Positions 8,048 to 50,552 of a stretch of 50,552 bases of DNA are shown here, piece by piece (position 1 is the first letter of the stretch; each line of letters starts with the position of its first letter). A program made the position numbers and the translations under genes. Under the pieces are notes generated by a model. It ran no database searches and was not told where the DNA came from. It was given only the letters and a program-made list of their open reading frames with translations. The stretch lies in sequence record MG049919, one strand, 5' to 3'. The stretch is from Shigella phage vB_SflS-ISF001.

Positions 8048-8500
8048 ATGAATATTCAACGTATCGCAGAGTCAACTGGTGAAATCGATACACGTCACAA
8101 CAATGGTAACAACGGAACACGACGCGGTAAAGATAAAATGCCTCGACTGCGCTGCGGCTTCTATATTCATATAGAAGAAACACGCGCCGGATTGCCAGCG
8201 CGACTTGATGCGCTTATCGTATATTATGGTGGCCCTGCGGCCTCCGCAAAAGCTCTAAAGGTTAGCATTCAGACGGTGCAAGGCTGGAAAGTACGCAACA
8301 TGATTTCGTGGCAAGCTGCTGAAGCTGCGCATCGTGCTTCCCGACGACAGGGGTGTAAAGGGTTTCGTGCCGCATGGTTGCGATTCGCCCTGAAGTTTGA
8401 CGGTAACGGCAAGTGCCTTGAGAAGCGATGCAAGATCAAGAAATTTATGCGCGTCGTGAAGAAGGAAGATATCGGGACGACCAATAGCATTTTTAGTTAA
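8048..8500 (+). CDS. HTH DNA-binding regulator (Cro/YdaS-like)
   Basis: HTH segment GGPAASAKALKVSIQTVQGWK; AGGAGAA RBS; canonical sigma70 promoter upstream; rho-independent terminator downstream. Confidence 0.55.
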   Translation: MNIQRIAESTGEIDTRHNNGNNGTRRGKDKMPRLRCGFYIHIEETRAGLPARLDALIVYYGGPAASAKALKVSIQTVQGWKVRNMISWQAAEAAHRASRRQGCKGFRAAWLRFALKFDGNGKCLEKRCKIKKFMRVVKKEDIGTTNSIFS

Positions 8501-13656: not shown

Positions 13657-13687
13657 TGCGTTTATCTCCTTCGTTTACGATGAATCC

Positions 13688-13715
13688 ATTATAGCCATTA
13701 ACGGCGTTTAGTCAA
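13688..13715 (-). promoter_or_regulatory. sigma70-type promoter for exonuclease-Erf-SSB unit
   Basis: Minus-strand TTGACT - 16 bp - TATAAT, about 30 nt upstream of exonuclease ATG. Confidence 0.6.
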
Positions 13716-14125
13716 TCGAATACATGTAATTGGTGTGTAATAGCGTGTCTATATCGCTCAAGTTACAACCAGCATTAACGGAATCAATTGCTTAAGTCTA
13801 TTTTTATGTGATGTCTACTGTGTAATACTTGTAACCGCTTTTTCTTAGAAATACAGAGATAGCTACAAGTAGAATCCATATTGATTAAATTTTGAACATA
13901 TATGATAGAAATTTGACGAATCAATCAAATCACCAGTTACACGATAGACAACTGTTACACAACAATAATTATATATATAAAGCTAAAATTAAATATTATC
14001 TATCTATATATATTATATAGAGTTTTTATCATATCCCTCTGCTGTCGGGTGGGGTGGATTTTGTAACACCCGCTCCGGTTACAAAAATAGACACCCGTTA
14101 CACGAAAAAAACTGTAATCGTGCTA

Positions 14126-14154
14126 TTGCAATAAAAGTAAATGCGACATACAAT
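14126..14154 (+). promoter_or_regulatory. sigma70-type promoter for 14184-15373 unit
   Basis: TTGCAA - 17 bp - TACAAT; partial 20-mer motif (CGTGCTATT) abuts the -35. Confidence 0.55.
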
Positions 14155-14183
14155 GCAATCACACTAACGACGAGGACATACAA

Positions 14184-34974: not shown

Positions 34975-35499
34975 TTAATGCATATCAAGAATGATGTTTA
35001 CTGCCTCTTTCATTGCATCCTCAGTAGTGGCGACTACTGTCGATGCGGAAGCTGACGAGTTTTCGATACTGATTGAGGCTGGCTTATCGATTCCCAAATC
35101 CTTACCGATAAAGGAGGCGTTATTCACACCGTTGGCAGCAAGCTGGAATTTTTGCTCGTTGATTACAGATTCCACGAACTCCATAACCTCACTGTACTCT
35201 TCCTCGCGTTTCCATTTATTGATTGCGGCCTCGCATGCTCCTATGAATAGTCGGTATCCGCTCCAAGTGAAGACGCGCGGCTGATGAACAAGTGACTCGT
35301 AAACGCCACCCTGGAAGCTGGCTGATTCTGACGCCTTGATCGCATTATCTTCGGCCCATTCATAATACTTAACTGACAGATCGAATAATTGCTCAGGAGT
35401 CATTCCCTGATTCTTCGCAAGAACAGAGCCAAACTTTTTCTTGTATAGCTCTCTGAAATTACCTCCCTGAACTACAGGGGCGTTCTTAGGTTCACTCAT
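34975..35499 (-). CDS. terminase small subunit (putative)
   Basis: 174 aa immediately upstream of TerL; AAGAGGA RBS; 20-mer motif just upstream. Confidence 0.55.
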   Translation of the reverse strand: MSEPKNAPVVQGGNFRELYKKKFGSVLAKNQGMTPEQLFDLSVKYYEWAEDNAIKASESASFQGGVYESLVHQPRVFTWSGYRLFIGACEAAINKWKREEEYSEVMEFVESVINEQKFQLAANGVNNASFIGKDLGIDKPASISIENSSASASTVVATTEDAMKEAVNIILDMH

Positions 35500-37288: not shown

Positions 37289-37344
37289 TTCGATTTTCTC
37301 TCTTCGTTGTCGATGAGGTGACTATATCAAATCACCCCACCGAC

Positions 37345-37364
37345 GTTTTAGCAATTAGTGCTAT
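37345..37364 (-). promoter_or_regulatory. early promoter cassette (20-mer + 22 bp + TATAGT in hairpin)
   Basis: Minus-strand ATAGCACTAATTGCTAAAAC; TATAGT within GGTGA/TCACC hairpin; leader CATCGACAACGAA. Confidence 0.6.
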
Positions 37365-37933
37365 TTGTTGATGAACGTAGCGGCTATGTGCAGAGCGGTA
37401 ATTTCAGGATGAACCTCAACAGAGAAGAAATCACATTCCTGATAACCGTTAACCCCGATCATATCGTCCAGGTAGATATAATCGCGACTGTCGTTATCGA
37501 AGTTGCAAACGTTGCGATGTATGCGGCATAGCTTGACCTGGATATCGCCTTCAATCATTTGCAAGATTTCGTCTTTGAATGCCCCGTCAGTAAATCCCGA
37601 AAGTAAGTGCGACTCTTTAACCTTACTTGCCGCTCGCATACCGCAGAATCGATATCCGTACTGCGGCTTGATGACTGCCTCGCTAATCCAGATCATAAAC
37701 TGGCGCGGGCTTTTACCGTTCAGGATTGACGCTGGCTCTTCTTTGTAACGACGGTCCTCATACAAGAACATGAAATACTCGTAGTTACTCCCACCCGAGA
37801 TTTCCCGAGCAATCTCAAACGTTGGTGCTTTGAAGCTGCGGAGCGCTACGTGATCGTAAGTGTCAGCCGGGATGCATCCGATAGTGTCTTTTCCCGCTCC
37901 AGGTGCGCCGTTTAAAATGATAGCTGTTTTCAT
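37361..37933 (-). CDS. P-loop nucleotide/polynucleotide kinase (dNMP kinase-like)
   Basis: Walker A GAPGAGKDT at residues 9-17, size about 190 aa. Confidence 0.6.
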   Translation of the reverse strand: MKTAIILNGAPGAGKDTIGCIPADTYDHVALRSFKAPTFEIAREISGGSNYEYFMFLYEDRRYKEEPASILNGKSPRQFMIWISEAVIKPQYGYRFCGMRAASKVKESHLLSGFTDGAFKDEILQMIEGDIQVKLCRIHRNVCNFDNDSRDYIYLDDMIGVNGYQECDFFSVEVHPEITALHIAATFINK

Positions 37934-38575: not shown

Positions 38576-38640
38576 GATTTATTCCTCTGATTGGTTGCTT
38601 AACTCAACGAAGGGCATTCTAACAAATGCCCTTGAGCAAG

Positions 38641-38660
38641 TTTTAGCAATTCGTGCTATT
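38641..38660 (-). promoter_or_regulatory. early promoter cassette
   Basis: Minus-strand AATAGCACGAATTGCTAAAA; TAGAAT 22 bp downstream in AGGGCATT/AATGCCCT hairpin. Confidence 0.6.
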
Positions 38661-43927: not shown

Positions 43928-44503
43928 TTACAGTCCGCACTTTTCTTTATGCGCACTCATCTGGCGAACCAGGTCGCGCACGGCACTTACAGTTATGTCG
44001 CCTTTCTCAATGTCATCATTATCAGGAACAAACCAGTCAAGGTAGTCAGCCGGGCTAACTCTTTTCCGGGTGAGGCGCTTCTTCACCGGAACCTCTTCGT
44101 CACTCACGGAAATAGTAACGACTCGCAACTTCTCATCGATCATGGTCACGCTCACCTTGACCCACTTGCCGATTTTGGAGAAGTGTCGCGATACGATCGG
44201 GGTGATTTCTGAGGATTTAAACTTCTCGATAATCTCTTCGGTCCGCCCAAGCAACCAGGACCCGGCGCACTCGACAACATCATAATCGTCGACGTCTGGC
44301 ATTGACTTCCTCACACAGGCCTCAGCCATCTGAGTAGCGTCGAATGTGAACTCAGTATTCACGCCATCACCATAAAGCTGATCGCAAGCGGCCCGGATAA
44401 CATCAGACACCTTAACCTCCTGGCGCTGCTCAACCGTTACCCCAGCCTTCTCGGAACCTGCCTGCATTGCTGCCTGAACCGCATCTGATTGGTAAGAACT
44501 CAT
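43928..44503 (-). CDS. hypothetical protein (191 aa), first gene of leftward early unit
   Basis: Start at internal ATG with AAGGAG RBS (track ORF to 44593); adjacent to control region B. Confidence 0.5.
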   Translation of the reverse strand: MSSYQSDAVQAAMQAGSEKAGVTVEQRQEVKVSDVIRAACDQLYGDGVNTEFTFDATQMAEACVRKSMPDVDDYDVVECAGSWLLGRTEEIIEKFKSSEITPIVSRHFSKIGKWVKVSVTMIDEKLRVVTISVSDEEVPVKKRLTRKRVSPADYLDWFVPDNDDIEKGDITVSAVRDLVRQMSAHKEKCGL

Positions 44504-44920
44504 AGGTTTCTCCTTAGTTTCAATATACACAATGATTAACGCGTAACAGCGCGTCTCTAATTGCAGTGTTACACGACGACCCGCCTGCGTCAAGGCTTGC
44601 AGGTCGATTTTAAGTGTGGTTAATCGTGTTAATCGTGTTAATCGCTTTCCCCATATAAATATGAGCCGATAAAACTACTGTATATATAAACATGAATACA
44701 ATAATCAGAGCATCCAACGATTAACATAGTAGACACGCTATACAACCATATTACAGATAATAGTATCTATATATATAAATAAAAAAAATACTTATATATT
44801 ATATATATACATATAGATATATGTATATTATAAGGCGTAATTTGGTGTAATTTTGTCTACTATTGAGATTCAGGCAAATTGTAGACAACTGTTAACACAC
44901 GGTCAAGTGTAACCGTAATC

Positions 44921-44940
44921 GATAGCACGTTTTGCTAAAA
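44921..44940 (+). promoter_or_regulatory. 20-mer motif copy inside control region B (no obvious -10 or gene)
   Basis: ATAGCACGTTTTGCTAAAAA; about 265 nt upstream of first rightward gene. Confidence 0.4.
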
Positions 44941-45125
44941 ATGGAGATAACCACCAGGCGAACCGGGTAACACCAGATCCTCCCTCTCACAATCATTGCA
45001 TTCTAAGCAACAAATAAACCAACTGTTGCACACCGTGCAATAATCACGTTTCATCATTCGTAATCAATAACAATCAAGGTTATTACACCTATTCCAGTAT
45101 TGATGGAATAATGAGCAATTATTGG

Positions 45126-45145
45126 AATAGCATTTTTTGCTAACG
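45126..45145 (+). promoter_or_regulatory. early promoter cassette for rightward unit
   Basis: ATAGCATTTTTTGCTAACG; tandem GGTCGGGTA x2 then GTATAG 22 bp downstream; leader AACCAATCAGAAGAGGAAG. Confidence 0.55.
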
Positions 45146-45205
45146 ACTCGGTCGGGTAGGTCGGGTATAGTCCGGCCCATAAACCAATCAGAAGAGGAAG
45201 CAACA

Positions 45206-45910
45206 ATGAAATTAATCTGGTCACTATACGACGGTTCTGGTCTTGCAAATCTTGAGCTAGCAAAGCAAGGCCATAAGGTGATGTGCTTCAACTGGGACGG
45301 AGCCGATCACGGAGTTTACGCAAAGTACAACGCCAGGGTTGAGCGTCATAACATTGAGTATGTGAACGTCTTTATTAATGAGAAGTTCGAACGTGATGCT
45401 ACCGCGCCTGTGTATGGCAAGCCTGATTTAATCAGGGCATTTCCTCAATGCACTGACCTGGCTGTTAGTGGCGCTGGTCACTTCGTAAGAAAGCGTGAGC
45501 GAGATCCGTTATTCCAGGAGAAGGCTGTTGCTACCGCCGGGATTGCTGCGAATATTGGCGACTCTCTTGGCGTGACTTACATATTTGAGAATCCGGTGAG
45601 TGTCCTGTCATCTGCCTGGAGAAAACCAAATCACTCCTTCAACCCCTGGGAGTATGGCGGCTATCTTCCTGAGAATGACGCACACCCCAAGTTCCCTATG
45701 TATATTGCGCCGCGCGATCGTTATCCGAAGAAAACTTGTCTTTGGACCTCGGACGATTTTGTCACACCGGAGAAAAAAAAAGTAAGCCTGCCTGACGGGT
45801 ACTCTACGCATCACAGCAAGCAGGGCAGCAAGTCGGTAAAGACGAAGCTGATACGATCCCTGTCGCAGCGTGGATTTTTCCCGGCGATCGCAAATAGCAC
45901 TTTTTGTTAA
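45206..45910 (+). CDS. putative DNA methyltransferase (weak C5-cytosine-like motifs)
   Basis: LYDGSG (motif I-like), FPQCTDLAVSGAG (PC-motif-like), IFENPV (ENV-like); ATG with AGAGGAAG RBS (track ORF from 45137); assignment tentative. Confidence 0.4.
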   Translation: MKLIWSLYDGSGLANLELAKQGHKVMCFNWDGADHGVYAKYNARVERHNIEYVNVFINEKFERDATAPVYGKPDLIRAFPQCTDLAVSGAGHFVRKRERDPLFQEKAVATAGIAANIGDSLGVTYIFENPVSVLSSAWRKPNHSFNPWEYGGYLPENDAHPKFPMYIAPRDRYPKKTCLWTSDDFVTPEKKKVSLPDGYSTHHSKQGSKSVKTKLIRSLSQRGFFPAIANSTFC

Positions 45911-45913
45911 AAC
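45894..45913 (+). promoter_or_regulatory. early promoter cassette
   Basis: ATAGCACTTTTTGTTAAAAC overlapping last codons and stop of methyltransferase-like gene; CATAAT 22 bp downstream. Confidence 0.55.
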
Positions 45914-45970
45914 TCGATCGGTGCGATTTGGCATAATTACCTCATCGAAACGAGATTGAGGAAAAACAAA

Positions 45971-46156
45971 ATGGCACGTCGCATCACTAATGACCTTAAA
46001 GTTCTGAACAAAGTTAACGTAGTTATTATCCAGGTTATTTGGGGATACAACGAAGTGTCAGTAAAGCAGAAGCTAGAGGCTCCTTATGACTTGGCTGTCA
46101 AGGCAATGCCTTCCGACGATCGCAATTTCATTGCAAACTATGTAGCATTCTTCTAA
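45971..46156 (+). CDS. hypothetical protein (61 aa)
   Basis: ATG with GAGGAAAAA RBS (track ORF from TTG 45956); promoter cassette upstream. Confidence 0.45.
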   Translation: MARRITNDLKVLNKVNVVIIQVIWGYNEVSVKQKLEAPYDLAVKAMPSDDRNFIANYVAFF

Positions 46157-46171
46157 TTAACGGGCTAACAA

Positions 46172-46357
46172 ATGAAAACGAAATTAGTGAACAAATCAGA
46201 AATCAAGAACGGCGATACTCTGATTGTCAACGGAGAGTTAAGGACGGTTGATAAGCAGTCAATAGTCAGAGATGAATTTTTGGGTCTGTTGTTGTTCGCC
46301 GACTCATATTGCCTAGGATACTTAAAAGTCGAGCTTGTTGTGGATGTAAAATTCTAA
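46172..46357 (+). CDS. hypothetical protein (61 aa)
   Basis: ORF track; stop immediately followed by 20-mer motif. Confidence 0.4.
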   Translation: MKTKLVNKSEIKNGDTLIVNGELRTVDKQSIVRDEFLGLLLFADSYCLGYLKVELVVDVKF

Positions 46358-46377
46358 ATAGCACTTTTTGTTAAAAC
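46358..46377 (+). promoter_or_regulatory. early promoter cassette
   Basis: ATAGCACTTTTTGTTAAAAC directly after stop codon; TATAAC 22 bp downstream; leader AACCAATCAGGAG. Confidence 0.55.
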
Positions 46378-46432
46378 ACGCCCGGTTAATCAGGGTATAA
46401 CTCCAACATAAACCAATCAGGAGAATGACTAG

Positions 46433-46813
46433 ATGACAGATTCAAATCTTCGGGCAGCAATTGACCGCGCAAATGACAAGCTATTCACAGATGAGTTTTG
46501 CAATCGCCTGCTGGGCGGGATAATGCACCCCAGCAACCGGGTTGTTATCACGCAACGCGATACCGGGATCAGTATCACGGATATCAATACCATTGAAGAG
46601 CATAAAAGCATGATTTCTTATATCTTGCGTTACGACGGATCGGTTGAGTTCGGAAAGCTGGACGGTGACGAGAAGGAGGCTGTCATTGACTTCCTTCTCG
46701 AAAACGTGAGTCTCGTGTTCGAACAGCGACTGGATTACCCAACGACTCGTTGGGATTGCGACATGATGGACGCAAACAACCGTATCCCTGAAATCCTGGA
46801 GGAAAGATTATGA
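46433..46813 (+). CDS. hypothetical protein (126 aa)
   Basis: ORF track; AACCAATCAGGAG leader; promoter cassette upstream. Confidence 0.5.
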   Translation: MTDSNLRAAIDRANDKLFTDEFCNRLLGGIMHPSNRVVITQRDTGISITDINTIEEHKSMISYILRYDGSVEFGKLDGDEKEAVIDFLLENVSLVFEQRLDYPTTRWDCDMMDANNRIPEILEERL

Positions 46814-46983
46814 TCGTATATATCGTTATGGGCGGCGAAACATATGAGGGTCAATATCGAGATACTGTTCACGTTGATTTTAAGAAGGCGAAGCAGTACA
46901 CAAACAGAAACAAGCAACAGATTCGCGGGGGATTTAGCATGTACGACTTAACGACGAATGTTGTGAAGGAAATTACCGAATAG
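46810..46983 (+). CDS. hypothetical small protein (57 aa)
   Basis: Not in ORF track; ATG overlapping upstream stop (ATGA), GGAGGAAAG RBS 6 nt upstream. Confidence 0.45.
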   Translation: MIVYIVMGGETYEGQYRDTVHVDFKKAKQYTNRNKQQIRGGFSMYDLTTNVVKEITE

Positions 46984-46998
46984 CACTTTTTGCTAAAC
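46979..46998 (+). promoter_or_regulatory. early promoter cassette
   Basis: ATAGCACTTTTTGCTAAACG (perfect TAGCA-N5-TGCTA); TATAGT in GGGATGACT/AGTCATCCC hairpin. Confidence 0.6.
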
Positions 46999-47054
46999 GC
47001 TCATCCGGGATGACTGGTATAGTCATCCCATCAACAGCAAGCGAGGAAAGAGTT

Positions 47055-49187: not shown

Positions 49188-50009
49188 ATGTTTAATATTA
49201 AGCCAAAACTGTTTTACCAACAGATTATTGAGATCGCCAATAGCACTGGAGTTAATCCGGTGGCGATCGCAATTCGTGAAAACAGCTATGGTGACTCAGT
49301 TTCATTTTGGCAAGATCCGATCGATATCAATAGCGGCAACGATAAGTTTCCTCTGATTTCGTTAGGTGGCGATAACCTGGTATTCGAATATGCAAAAGCA
49401 AAGGCCGAGTCTGTACAGTTCCCTGTTTCGTCTGCGTACGCTCATTTCATTGGGTGCATCTCAGCCGCGATGCTCGGGAAGTTTTGGGTGCAATATCACG
49501 GAGAAGAGCAACCTACCGCTCTTTACATGGTAATCAGCCAGCCACCTTCAACAGGTAAATCTGCGATTAACTCCGCAGCGATTACGCCTATGCGCGCAGA
49601 GATTCAGCGACTGAATGAAGAGCGAAAAAAGGAACGTATCCGTTTAACCAGTCAGCTACGTCAGGTCGAGAAGGAAATTAAAAACGACCCGAAGGGTAAC
49701 ACGACGGCGGCGCTGTACGAGGACAAAGAAAAACTGGAAGAAAAGATCAAGAAGATGGCTGATATTGTTTTCGCGGTATCAGATCCTACACCTGAAGGTC
49801 TTGCGAAGGTGGCGGCTGTTCAAGGTCACTTCTCAGTAATCTCTGATGAGGCGACAGCAATCAATACATTGCTCGGACTGAATTATGGCGGTTCTGATAA
49901 GAAATCAAACAGCGAACTTATCCTTAAGGCGTGGGATAAAAACCATATGGAGGTCGCGCGTTCAAACCAAGACAACAACTTACTTCTATCCCCGAACGGT
50001 TCGATCTAG
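49188..50009 (+). CDS. hypothetical protein with degenerate P-loop-like segment
   Basis: ATG with AAGGAG RBS (track ORF from 49125); QPPSTGKSA resembles a degenerate Walker A; coiled-coil Lys/Glu-rich middle. Confidence 0.5.
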   Translation: MFNIKPKLFYQQIIEIANSTGVNPVAIAIRENSYGDSVSFWQDPIDINSGNDKFPLISLGGDNLVFEYAKAKAESVQFPVSSAYAHFIGCISAAMLGKFWVQYHGEEQPTALYMVISQPPSTGKSAINSAAITPMRAEIQRLNEERKKERIRLTSQLRQVEKEIKNDPKGNTTAALYEDKEKLEEKIKKMADIVFAVSDPTPEGLAKVAAVQGHFSVISDEATAINTLLGLNYGGSDKKSNSELILKAWDKNHMEVARSNQDNNLLLSPNGSI

Positions 50010-50020
50010 ACCATTGCGCA

Positions 50021-50552
50021 GGATGAAACAATGTTGGGTATCATGGACGCAGGCCTAAGAGGCATCGGCGTATCTGAGCGTTTCCTTTTAGTTCGTGAGG
50101 AACCACTTTTAGGTACTCGTATTCTTTGTGATGAAAATGGTGATGCGCTGTTTAAGGAAGTCGATCGAGGATTGGTGAGTAAATATTATCGACTCGTACA
50201 CAACATCATGAAAGAGGATAACGTTGTTTTATCTGTAAGCCGTAATGCTATGCGTGAATTAAACCTTGCGCGTCAGGCGATGGAACCGGATTTCGCCGCA
50301 GGTGGGAAATACTCTCACTCAATGCTACGCGGTCATCTCAGCAAGTTCGATAAGCACGCCTTGCGTATTGCTTCAGTTCTCCTAACGATAATGAGTTCGA
50401 GGAGTGAATCACCGAACCGTTCCAACCGTGAGATTGACCATGGAACAATGCAGGAAGCAAAAACCATCTTTAATGAGCTTTCCAGGACTTATCTGTCGCT
50501 TAAAAGCGCTTCCGGGTATGCTGGTGATGATGCTGTATCTCGTAAGCTGATT
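50021..50552 (+). CDS. hypothetical protein, 5' fragment (runs off window end)
   Basis: ATG at 50021, 11 nt after upstream TAG; open to window end. Confidence 0.4.

Follow-up and report, generated by a model that had tools for sequence, protein, structure and literature searches.

The DNA analysed here, referred to throughout as the window, is the 50,552-bp sequence of Shigella phage vB_SflS-ISF001 (MG049919), a complete, circularly permuted genome of a T1-like phage (Drexlerviridae, Tunavirus). We describe the non-coding gap at 44504-45205 (region B), its partner at 13657-14183 (region A) and a TA-rich element flanked by short repeats that is present in both. Small early genes and the terminase, head and tail genes run leftward from region B, and the right-hand genes run rightward. 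The nearest relative, Shigella phage vB_SsoS-ISF002, is collinear with the window, with 97.8% identity around region B and 100% over the gap.

Region B extends from the first leftward early gene, a homologue of T1 ST77, to the gene of a Dcm-like methylase. An earlier reading made from the letters and their open reading frames (the sequence-only reading) had put this gap at 612 bp. That figure did not stand, because the leftward gene starts at ATG 44503 rather than TTG 44593 and the methylase starts at 45206, giving a gap of 702 bp. An AAGGAG ribosome-binding site is present at the leftward start, the annotated counterparts in ISF002 and T1 are 576 nt long, and the 191-amino-acid version matches its PHROG over the full length.

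In our view region B is a composite control region of this T1-like phage, in which four parts can be told apart: an early promoter of host type directed leftward, a rightward promoter of the 20-mer type, a probable pac block and one copy (copy B) of a module whose second copy (copy A) lies in region A. Three functions formerly pooled as "the terminal UTR" (untranslated region), namely early promoters, a candidate replication element and the pac region, are now separated. The features that make up the module and its surroundings are listed below.

44504-45205, no strand: region B, the entire non-coding gap from the first leftward early gene (ATG 44503) to the Dcm-like methylase gene (ATG 45206)
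44616-44643, minus strand: tandem GTGGTTAATC-GTGTTAATC-GTGTTAATC, read on the minus strand as two copies of GATTAACAC plus GATTAACCAC; TAACAC half-sites, 9 bp apart
44730-44746, plus strand: degenerate composite iteron TAGACACGCTATACAAC, 12 bp left of TA core B
44758-44832, no strand: TA core, copy B; 75 bp, 92% A+T, (TA)n-rich, the least stable duplex segment of the genome
44834-44859, minus strand: right-hand iterons facing the core; TAGACAAAATTACAC (44845-44859), then TTACGC (44836-44841), with 10-bp phasing
44882-44900, plus strand: composite iteron (44882-44898) within TAGACAACTGTTAACACAC, the 19-mer of the sequence-only reading; lies over the spacer and -10 of the leftward promoter
13657-14183, no strand: region A, the partner copy; 527-bp gap flanked by recE/exonuclease VIII on the minus strand and the cor lipoprotein gene on the plus strand
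13735-13751, minus strand: composite iteron TAGACACGCTATTACAC; the -35 of the recE promoter lies 20 bp downstream
13945-13963, plus strand: composite iteron TAGACAACTGTTACAC(AAC), abutting the left side of TA core A; partner of the region B 19-mer
13964-14034, no strand: TA core, copy A; only TA core B is a less stable duplex in the genome
14088-14103, plus strand: composite iteron TAGACACCCGTTACAC, overlapping a promoter that others annotated for cor (TAGACA-N18-TGTAAT); GTAATCG comes next, as it does in region B

One module in two copies

The full repeat unit is TAGACA-N3-5-T(T/A)ACAC, with its half-sites one helical turn apart. The composite motif TAGACA-N3-5-TWACAC had five matches in the 50,552 bp, against 0.01 expected, and all of them lay within regions A or B (13735(-), 13945(+), 14088(+), 44845(-) and 44882(+)), which combined make up 2.4% of the genome. 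The same two regions held every GTGTAAC of the genome (5/5), seven of the 17 TAGACA words and, among the words of the TA core, ATATATA in 18 of 19 cases and TATATATA in all eight. Three 12-mers with at least three G/C positions were shared between A and B compared with 0.06 expected (8/2000 shuffles), so this word sharing is not due to chance. The sequence-only reading had described a 19-mer common to both regions. An exact 13-mer, TAGACAACTGTTA, is indeed common to TAGACAACTGTTAACACAC and 13945-13957, but a 1-nt indel follows and there is no exact 19-mer. A second element for which it had noted a likeness to region A, TAGACACGCTATACAAC, was borne out by the 12-mer TAGACACGCTAT, which matches 13740-13751 on the minus strand.

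Aligned directly, the left repeats and core of the two regions (13939-14021 and 44733-44817) matched over 89 nt with 76% identity (E 4e-10). Beyond the core the order of elements was also the same, with a composite repeat 83-93 bp away in both regions, then GTAATCG, and then a 20-mer or the remnant of one. From the shared repeats, the cores, the direct alignment and this downstream order we conclude that a single module of ~200 bp is present in duplicate, once in A and once in B; in it a TA-rich core of about 70-75 bp stands between short flanking repeats. Copy B occupies about 44726-44941 and copy A about 13935-14120.

On the left side of copy B, a 9-mer had been reported three times in tandem. 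The tandem array is there, with two exact copies of GTGTTAATC (44626-44634 and 44635-44643) directly preceded by one 10-nt variant, GTGGTTAATC (44616-44625). Inverted GATTAAC copies lie at 44534-44540 and 44719-44725, each ~85 bp from the tandem 9-mers. At the position of the array four other Tunaviruses have TAGACAAATGTTACAC and a second TAGACA, and since the 9-mers themselves read as TAACAC half-sites, the array is a local variant of the same repeat family.

The AT-rich tract had been described as about 80 bp of A/T only. It is present as the 75-bp core, in which the longest pure A/T runs measure 23 and 18 nt, and at 92% A+T it is not A/T-only. In a genome-wide nearest-neighbour free-energy scan the two TA cores were the least stable DNA of the genome (44752-44831, z 6.4; 13955-14034, z 5.5; next segment, z 3.3), which fits the earlier idea of an unwinding element. 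In copy B a perfect 10-bp inverted repeat, ATAGTAGACA (44726-44735) and TGTCTACTAT (44854-44863), closes an imperfect palindrome, and the DNA fold z was -3.55 for this copy and +0.66 for copy A. Inverted arrays arranged symmetrically about the core were considered as the defining design and rejected, as copy A does not have them. Palindromy is not a defining feature of the module, because copy A is without a palindrome and the 10-bp inverted repeat is not kept in relatives.

Conservation of the module

Region A was retained with at least 90.7% identity over its full length in 59 of the 63 matching Tunavirus records, and region B was a mosaic with 75-90% identity. In an alignment of region A from seven Tunaviruses, the 133 bp of left repeats and core (13902-14034) contained six variable columns compared with 99/394 elsewhere (p = 1.7e-8), and TA core A (69 bp) contained one. 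In region B, aligned for six Tunaviruses, the TA core had 22% variable columns compared with 43-60% in the flanks. These alignments suggest that the TA core and the left repeats are under purifying selection. The sequence-only reading had named absence of the shared 19-mers from related phages as part of what would refute it. We found the region A copy and its TA core almost invariant across the seven Tunaviruses; the region B copy was only partly conserved in sequence, with the promoter retained and TAGACAA present in five of six genomes.

T1 alone departs from the repeat. Its TAGACA reads TATAC(A/G), core-proximal, at 13947 and 14090 in region A and at 44856 and 44884 in region B. Four identical G-to-T changes in regions 30 kb apart are hard to explain unless there is one recogniser or sequence exchange between the sites.

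The left end of region B is a separate matter. Positions 44504-44670 form a mosaic module that travels with the first leftward gene and, among the six aligned Tunaviruses, is common only to the window and T1. Eco_BIFF, Sfin-1, LeonhardEuler and IME18 have another first gene (516 nt) and another upstream sequence, and the TAGACA/GTTACAC repeats are still present in them. Next to this segment, TACTGTATATATAAACATGA (44676-44695) agrees at 17/20 positions with the consensus of the LexA (SOS) box, TACTGTATATATATACAGTA. Its left half is perfect and its right half has CAT for CAG. The core of this LexA-like site, ACTGTATATATAAACATG, is invariant in the six Tunaviruses, with differing flanks.

The gap upstream of recE was compared with the gap at the termini in four genomes of other lineages, and a related pair was found in each. 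In Rtp (Braunvirinae) the two copies aligned over 161 nt without gaps (76%, E 1e-31) and to about 370 nt with gaps, making the element the strongest internal repeat of that genome. The alignments were 136 nt in TLS (Tempevirinae; 70%, E 2e-12), with a second segment of 100 nt, 151 nt in Klebsiella phage 1513 (Webervirus; 83%, E 5e-36), where it was again the top internal repeat, and 160 nt in Rogue1 (Rogunavirinae; 69%, E 6e-12). The 149-nt Webervirus element was found in 555 places in 316 records of the phage database, so most records contain two copies. A database-scale blastn search did not recover the second copy of the Rtp element, which pairwise alignment does recover.

In all five lineages one copy preceded the recE operon and the other the terminase-side early operon, each at a distance of about 110-325 bp and in the same orientation relative to its operon. 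Phage 1513 has its recE operon inverted, and the orientation of the element follows. The TA core was recognisable across subfamilies as a TATA(A/T)-rich box followed by TTAG and then (ATT)n(TA)n. The flanking repeats were those of each lineage: TTACAC/TAGACA in the window, TGTTCAC/TGTTCCA in TLS, and TTACGC/ATACGC with 10-11-bp phasing in Rtp and Rogue1. In phage 1513 the repeat GGTAAGAT had all eight of its genome copies in the two regions (A' and B'), as did 13 of 18 GTAAGAT copies. The copies inside one genome were far more alike than equivalent copies between subfamilies, a sign that they evolve in concert or co-evolve with a binding specificity that they share.

From these comparisons we consider it very probable that one sequence-specific factor reads both regions. 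The earlier suggestion of one protein acting at both is thus strongly supported by the paired module in five Drexlerviridae lineages, the match of repeats within each genome and the four-site change in T1.

Some small open reading frames have been annotated inside these elements. In region A, T1 (AY216660) has a 46-amino-acid frame at 428-568, equivalent to window ~13784-13924, and region B of Rogue1 has gp01 and gp02 (66-260 and 420-542). Such frames lie over repeats, over the TA core or where the gap is most variable. The small frames annotated within the T1 and Rogue1 non-coding elements are probably not genes.

Promoters, the 20-mer repeat and the record ends

The remaining features of region B, and the promoter of region A, are the following.

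44878-44906, minus strand: predicted leftward sigma-70-type promoter, TTGACC-17-TACAAT; 10/12
13715-13688, minus strand: recE promoter, TTGACT-16-TATAAT
44915-44941, plus strand: GTAATCG and the 'orphan' 20-mer ATAGCACGTTTTGCTAAAAA; the 20-mer itself at 44922-44941
45127-45171, plus strand: rightward promoter; 20-mer ATAGCATTTTTTGCTAACGA, then two copies of GGTCGGGTA, then the -10-like TATAGT (45166-45171), with no -35
44942-45125, no strand: conserved block beside the probable pac site, with palindrome TTGCACACCGTGCAA (45026-45040)

Only ten sites genome-wide matched the sigma-70 consensus at 10/12 or better, and the best site was the recE promoter (11/12) in region A. An equivalent of the leftward promoter was found in relatives with other hexamers, TTGATT-17-TATGAT in T1 and TTGTCA-17-TAGAAT in four other Tunaviruses. 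Because diverged relatives keep a promoter there with different hexamers, there is good evidence that the leftward promoter is real.

Both 20-mers of region B are ordinary members of the 21-nt intergenic repeat of Drexlerviridae, aaATAGCACnnnTTGnTAAAA, which is characterised by the consensus ATAGCACnnnTTGnTAAAA, an orientation with transcription and a position about 76 nt upstream of a start codon. This 20/21-nt repeat was described in TLS, and its presence in T1 and Rtp was noted, without an assigned function (PMC11447400). It is unlike the iteron/TA-core module in being nearly identical across subfamilies, present in about 25 copies per genome and oriented with transcription. The copy at 45127-45146 lies 79 nt upstream of the methylase ATG (45206) and has every one of these properties. 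The copy at 44922 fits the consensus and is atypical because no gene follows: the next same-strand start codon is 284 nt away, and no -10-like hexamer comes after it. The sequence-only reading had mentioned one orphan copy in the gap. It is right that 44922-44941 has no gene behind it, but the gap also contains the second copy. As the centre of the 44922 copy lies about 59 bp upstream of the predicted leftward start, this 20-mer may serve the leftward promoter and not be an orphan. With GTAATCG it formed the most conserved piece of region B (2/27 columns variable, 7%, in six Tunaviruses).

The 20-mer has dyad symmetry (TAGCA-N5-TGCTA). By visual inspection, five copies lie 22-23 nt upstream of a -10-like hexamer, without a -35 and often with a small GC hairpin between; the promoter regions inspected include 37317-37365, 38612-38660, 45893-45948 and 46357-46399. 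Judged on sequence, this spacing without a -35 is the geometry of an activator-dependent promoter. The helix-turn-helix (HTH) protein Rtp52 was reportedly proposed in the Rtp genome paper as the binder of the 20-mer, and the window encodes an Rtp52 homologue at 8048-8500. In the rightward promoter the tandem GGTCGGGTA pair (45150-45167) occupies the space between the 20-mer and the -10 and is not conserved in relatives. T1 is without window positions 45149-46977, which hold the Dcm-like methylase gene and four small genes. The two T1 alignments on either side overlap by 24 nt exactly at 20-mer copies (45126-45148 and 46978-46999), so 20-mers appear to be recombination joints for gene-cassette mosaicism.

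The block to the right of the 44922 copy differs from the TA tract. About 20% of its columns at 44942-45060 were variable in the six Tunaviruses. Position 1 of the T1 record aligned to 45041/45042, directly after the palindrome TTGCACACCGTGCAA, with homology continuous across the junction of that record, in which positions 1-2800 are annotated as a terminal repeat region. Position 1 of the Rtp record aligned to about 45029, and other phage records ended at 44953-45054. The T1 and Rtp starts are therefore about 200-280 bp to the right of the TA tract, in a separate conserved block. The pac site of T1 and relatives has been placed in this UTR (SU57 paper, PMC7718038). Because the ends of the T1, Rtp and other records fall in it, block 44942-45125 and not the TA tract is the candidate; it is probably the pac region, with packaging predicted to proceed leftward. 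The terS gene is located at 34975-35499, 9.5 kb from the block, and the adjacency of pac and terS seen in P22, SPP1 and Sf6 does not apply.

The pac-proximal part of the block (44985-45125) is rich in GCAAT/ATTGC and AATCA words, as are the equivalent blocks of Klebsiella phage 1513 (26150-26390) and Rtp (46150-46219 and 1-60); TTGCACACCGTGCAATAATCAC is one example. These words could be small-terminase recognition repeats kept across subfamilies. An Rfam scan of 44400-45300 gave nothing credible (best hit, a small nucleolar RNA with E 0.87), so that a known RNA in the conserved block after the orphan 20-mer is not supported.

Candidate function of the paired module

Earlier knowledge covered the termini UTR, the 20-mer and, in outline, pac. 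For T1-like phages the origin is stated to be unknown, and no iterons were found (PMC11447400, PMC7718038). The two-copy iteron and TA-core module is not described in the literature that we searched and is the best candidate so far for sites at which replication starts or is controlled. We give about an even chance to the reading that the A/B pair are cis-acting replication elements that overlap early promoters. A phage-encoded, lineage-specific DNA-binding protein would occupy the iterons of both copies, and the bound protein would melt or mark the TA core. The pair might then act as two origins, or as an origin with a helper site, like oriL/oriR of SPP1 or ori/crr of P4. Iteron binding would also modulate early transcription, because iterons overlap the leftward early and cor promoters and abut the recE promoter. 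The window contains a motif cluster specific to the element, adjoining AT-rich DNA of low stability and a second, distant copy of the same design. Core and iterons are kept while the promoters sit differently in A and B, which argues for a role that is not tied to one promoter. Covariation of the repeats within genomes supports binding by a replicon-encoded initiator only indirectly.

The phage encodes a replication set of its own, consisting of a primase, a DUF3987 helicase, an SNF2-type helicase, SSB and recombination genes. The N-terminal zinc ribbon of the primase is homologous to residues 14-93 of P4 alpha (E 7e-11). The DUF3987 helicase is a candidate binder by analogy only. PDB sequence searches with this helicase and with the primase gave no significant matches, the last 85 residues of the helicase had no Pfam match, the Pox_D5 origin-binding domain was not found in any tested window protein, and for the early open reading frames PHROGs returned 'unknown function' only. 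Cumulative GC skew has its minimum at region B, yet it simply follows gene orientation and is uninformative.

The closest parallel is SPP1, a pac-type headful siphovirus of about 44-50 kb like the phage of the window. SPP1 also has two distant, non-identical copies that combine direct repeats with an AT-rich unwinding element, and one protein (gp38) binds both. The second copy has been proposed to trigger recombination-dependent concatemer synthesis through an exonuclease, an annealing protein and SSB (PMC6316719). One SPP1 copy is in a long intergenic region, and in the window copy A stands directly upstream of recE-erf-ssb. Unlike this likeness in layout, there is no sequence or protein homology between SPP1 and the window, and SPP1 uses a gp38/gp39/DnaB-type helicase set where T1-like phages have a P4-alpha-like primase with DUF3987 and SNF2-type helicases. 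P4 alpha is said to bind both ori and crr, and both are reportedly required in cis. The two P4 regions lie several kb apart and have a common repeat, TGTTCACC, flanking AT-rich DNA (GenBank annotation and sequence). The TLS repeats TGTTCACA and CGTTCACG are identical to the P4 repeat at 7/8 positions, which may be coincidence. Alpha has its origin-binding domain, Pox_D5 in Pfam, at residues 670-768, whereas the helicase of the window is a separate DUF3987 protein without detectable similarity to alpha. A P4-type replication system was rejected, as the primase zinc ribbon alone is in common, without Pox_D5.

In lambda, Staphylococcus aureus pathogenicity islands (SaPIs), phage-inducible chromosomal islands (PICIs) and iteron plasmids, an AT-rich stretch is flanked by short repeats in either orientation, and initiators often regulate themselves through repeats that overlap promoters. 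Those systems have one origin, usually in or beside the initiator gene, whereas the window has two copies, neither beside an identified initiator gene. In T7 (phi1.1A/B with an AT-rich region) and T4 (oriF, oriG) a transcript from a promoter primes or opens the origin, and iterons are not needed. The promoter of copy B (44906..44878) resembles these in firing into the TA core about 45 bp downstream; copy A differs in that a weak promoter-like match (TAGACA-16-AATTAT, 9/12) points into its core.

Several observations weigh against a replication element. Overlap of three iterons with promoters is explained equally well by a pure operator model, the position upstream of the operons is fixed and copy A travels with recE as a regulatory region would, and many repeats of phage 1513 pair as palindromes, as repressor operators do. 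The TA core is conserved in sequence and not only in composition, which exceeds the need of a simple unwinding element. Pfam, PHROGs and PDB sequence searches found no origin-binding domain in the candidate proteins, and the C-terminus of the DUF3987 helicase is only moderately divergent between lineages with different repeats. As the main rival reading, the module might instead be purely transcriptional. Its repeats would be operators at which an early phage regulator, acting as repressor or shut-off factor, controls the early-left and recE-erf-ssb operons jointly with the divergent cor and right-arm promoters, and its core would be an upstream promoter element or bending element. We judge this somewhat unlikely. 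In its favour, the strongest sigma-70-like promoters of the genome are in A (recE, 11/12) and B (44906..44878, 10/12), and iterons are found over the leftward promoter (spacer and -10), over the -35 of the cor promoter and a short distance upstream of the recE promoter. The palindromic pairs of phage 1513 count towards it as well, as do position and orientation relative to the downstream operons, which are fixed in five lineages. However, the promoters are not equivalent, since that of B fires through the core and the recE promoter of A is about 250 bp beyond it, and phage 1513 has a recE promoter of the 20-mer type. A 70-bp run of the least stable DNA with phased repeats is atypical of operators, and in the 20-mer the family already has a different repeat for general regulation, for which a conserved HTH protein has been proposed as binder (PMC11447400).

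Binding of the repeats and core by host DnaA, IHF, Fis or H-NS, which would organise or silence incoming phage DNA, seems improbable to us. The DNA of A and B is AT-rich, DnaA boxes with one mismatch number 7 in A and B versus 2.3 expected, and a perfect IHF consensus, AATCAATTGCTTA, one of four genome-wide, is located at 13782-13794 between the recE promoter and the TA core. However, neither region contains a perfect DnaA box and the near-matches are the iteron itself, for which reason a DnaA-dependent, oriC-like origin was also rejected. The repeats moreover differ among phages of E. coli (TTACAC in T1-like phages, TTACGC in Rtp, TGTTCAC in TLS), and a fixed host protein does not predict the concerted change at four sites in T1. 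The sequence-only reading had also considered the AT tract as a packaging element, and we regard it as very unlikely that tract and repeats are part of pac and read by the small terminase. This idea draws on the report of pac in this UTR of T1-like phages (PMC7718038), on the T1 and Rtp records that start 200-280 bp from the tract and on the terminal repeat (1-2800) of the T1 record. Against it, an equivalent tract with the same repeats lies at 13.9 kb in region A, 30 kb from any terminus, record ends group at 44953-45054 in the other conserved block, and the small terminase is highly conserved (99%, SH6 vs T1) where the repeats are lineage-specific. It is scarcely credible that the pair was left over from an old duplication, or arose by recombination, and has no function now, with the motifs shared incidentally. 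The similarity of A and B in the window genome is modest (89 nt, 76%), as a relic would have it, but five lineages and hundreds of genomes have kept the pair, purifying selection on the core is strong and the changes at the repeat sites are concerted.

Drexlerviridae might replicate from, or control replication through, a physically coupled A/B pair bridged by one iteron-binding protein, a more speculative proposal that we consider unlikely. Bridging of copy B, with pac and the early promoters, to copy A, with recE-erf-ssb, would time the switch from origin-dependent to recombination-driven concatemer synthesis and would tie that switch to packaging. The specificity of the binder would co-evolve fast with the repeats, as the G-to-T switch at four sites in T1 suggests.

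T1 belongs to the seven classic T phages. T1-like phages are notorious as contaminants of laboratories and fermenters and are frequent candidates for therapy. The module offers two precise targets, each about 200 bp long, together with a defined motif of 16 nt, and the lineage-specific repeats together with the natural four-site variant of T1 amount to a built-in specificity-swap system.

The conserved gene of the DUF3987 helicase (homologue of T1 gp09 and Rtp67) is split by the ends of the window, running from 49188 to 50552 and continuing at 1-204. It contains an in-frame amber TAG at 50007-50009, where Rtp, TLS and phage 1513 have Ser or Cys, and the reading frame runs on past the amber codon to the normal end. 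The codon could be a sequencing error, an amber mutation in a phage propagated on a suppressor host or a site of read-through.

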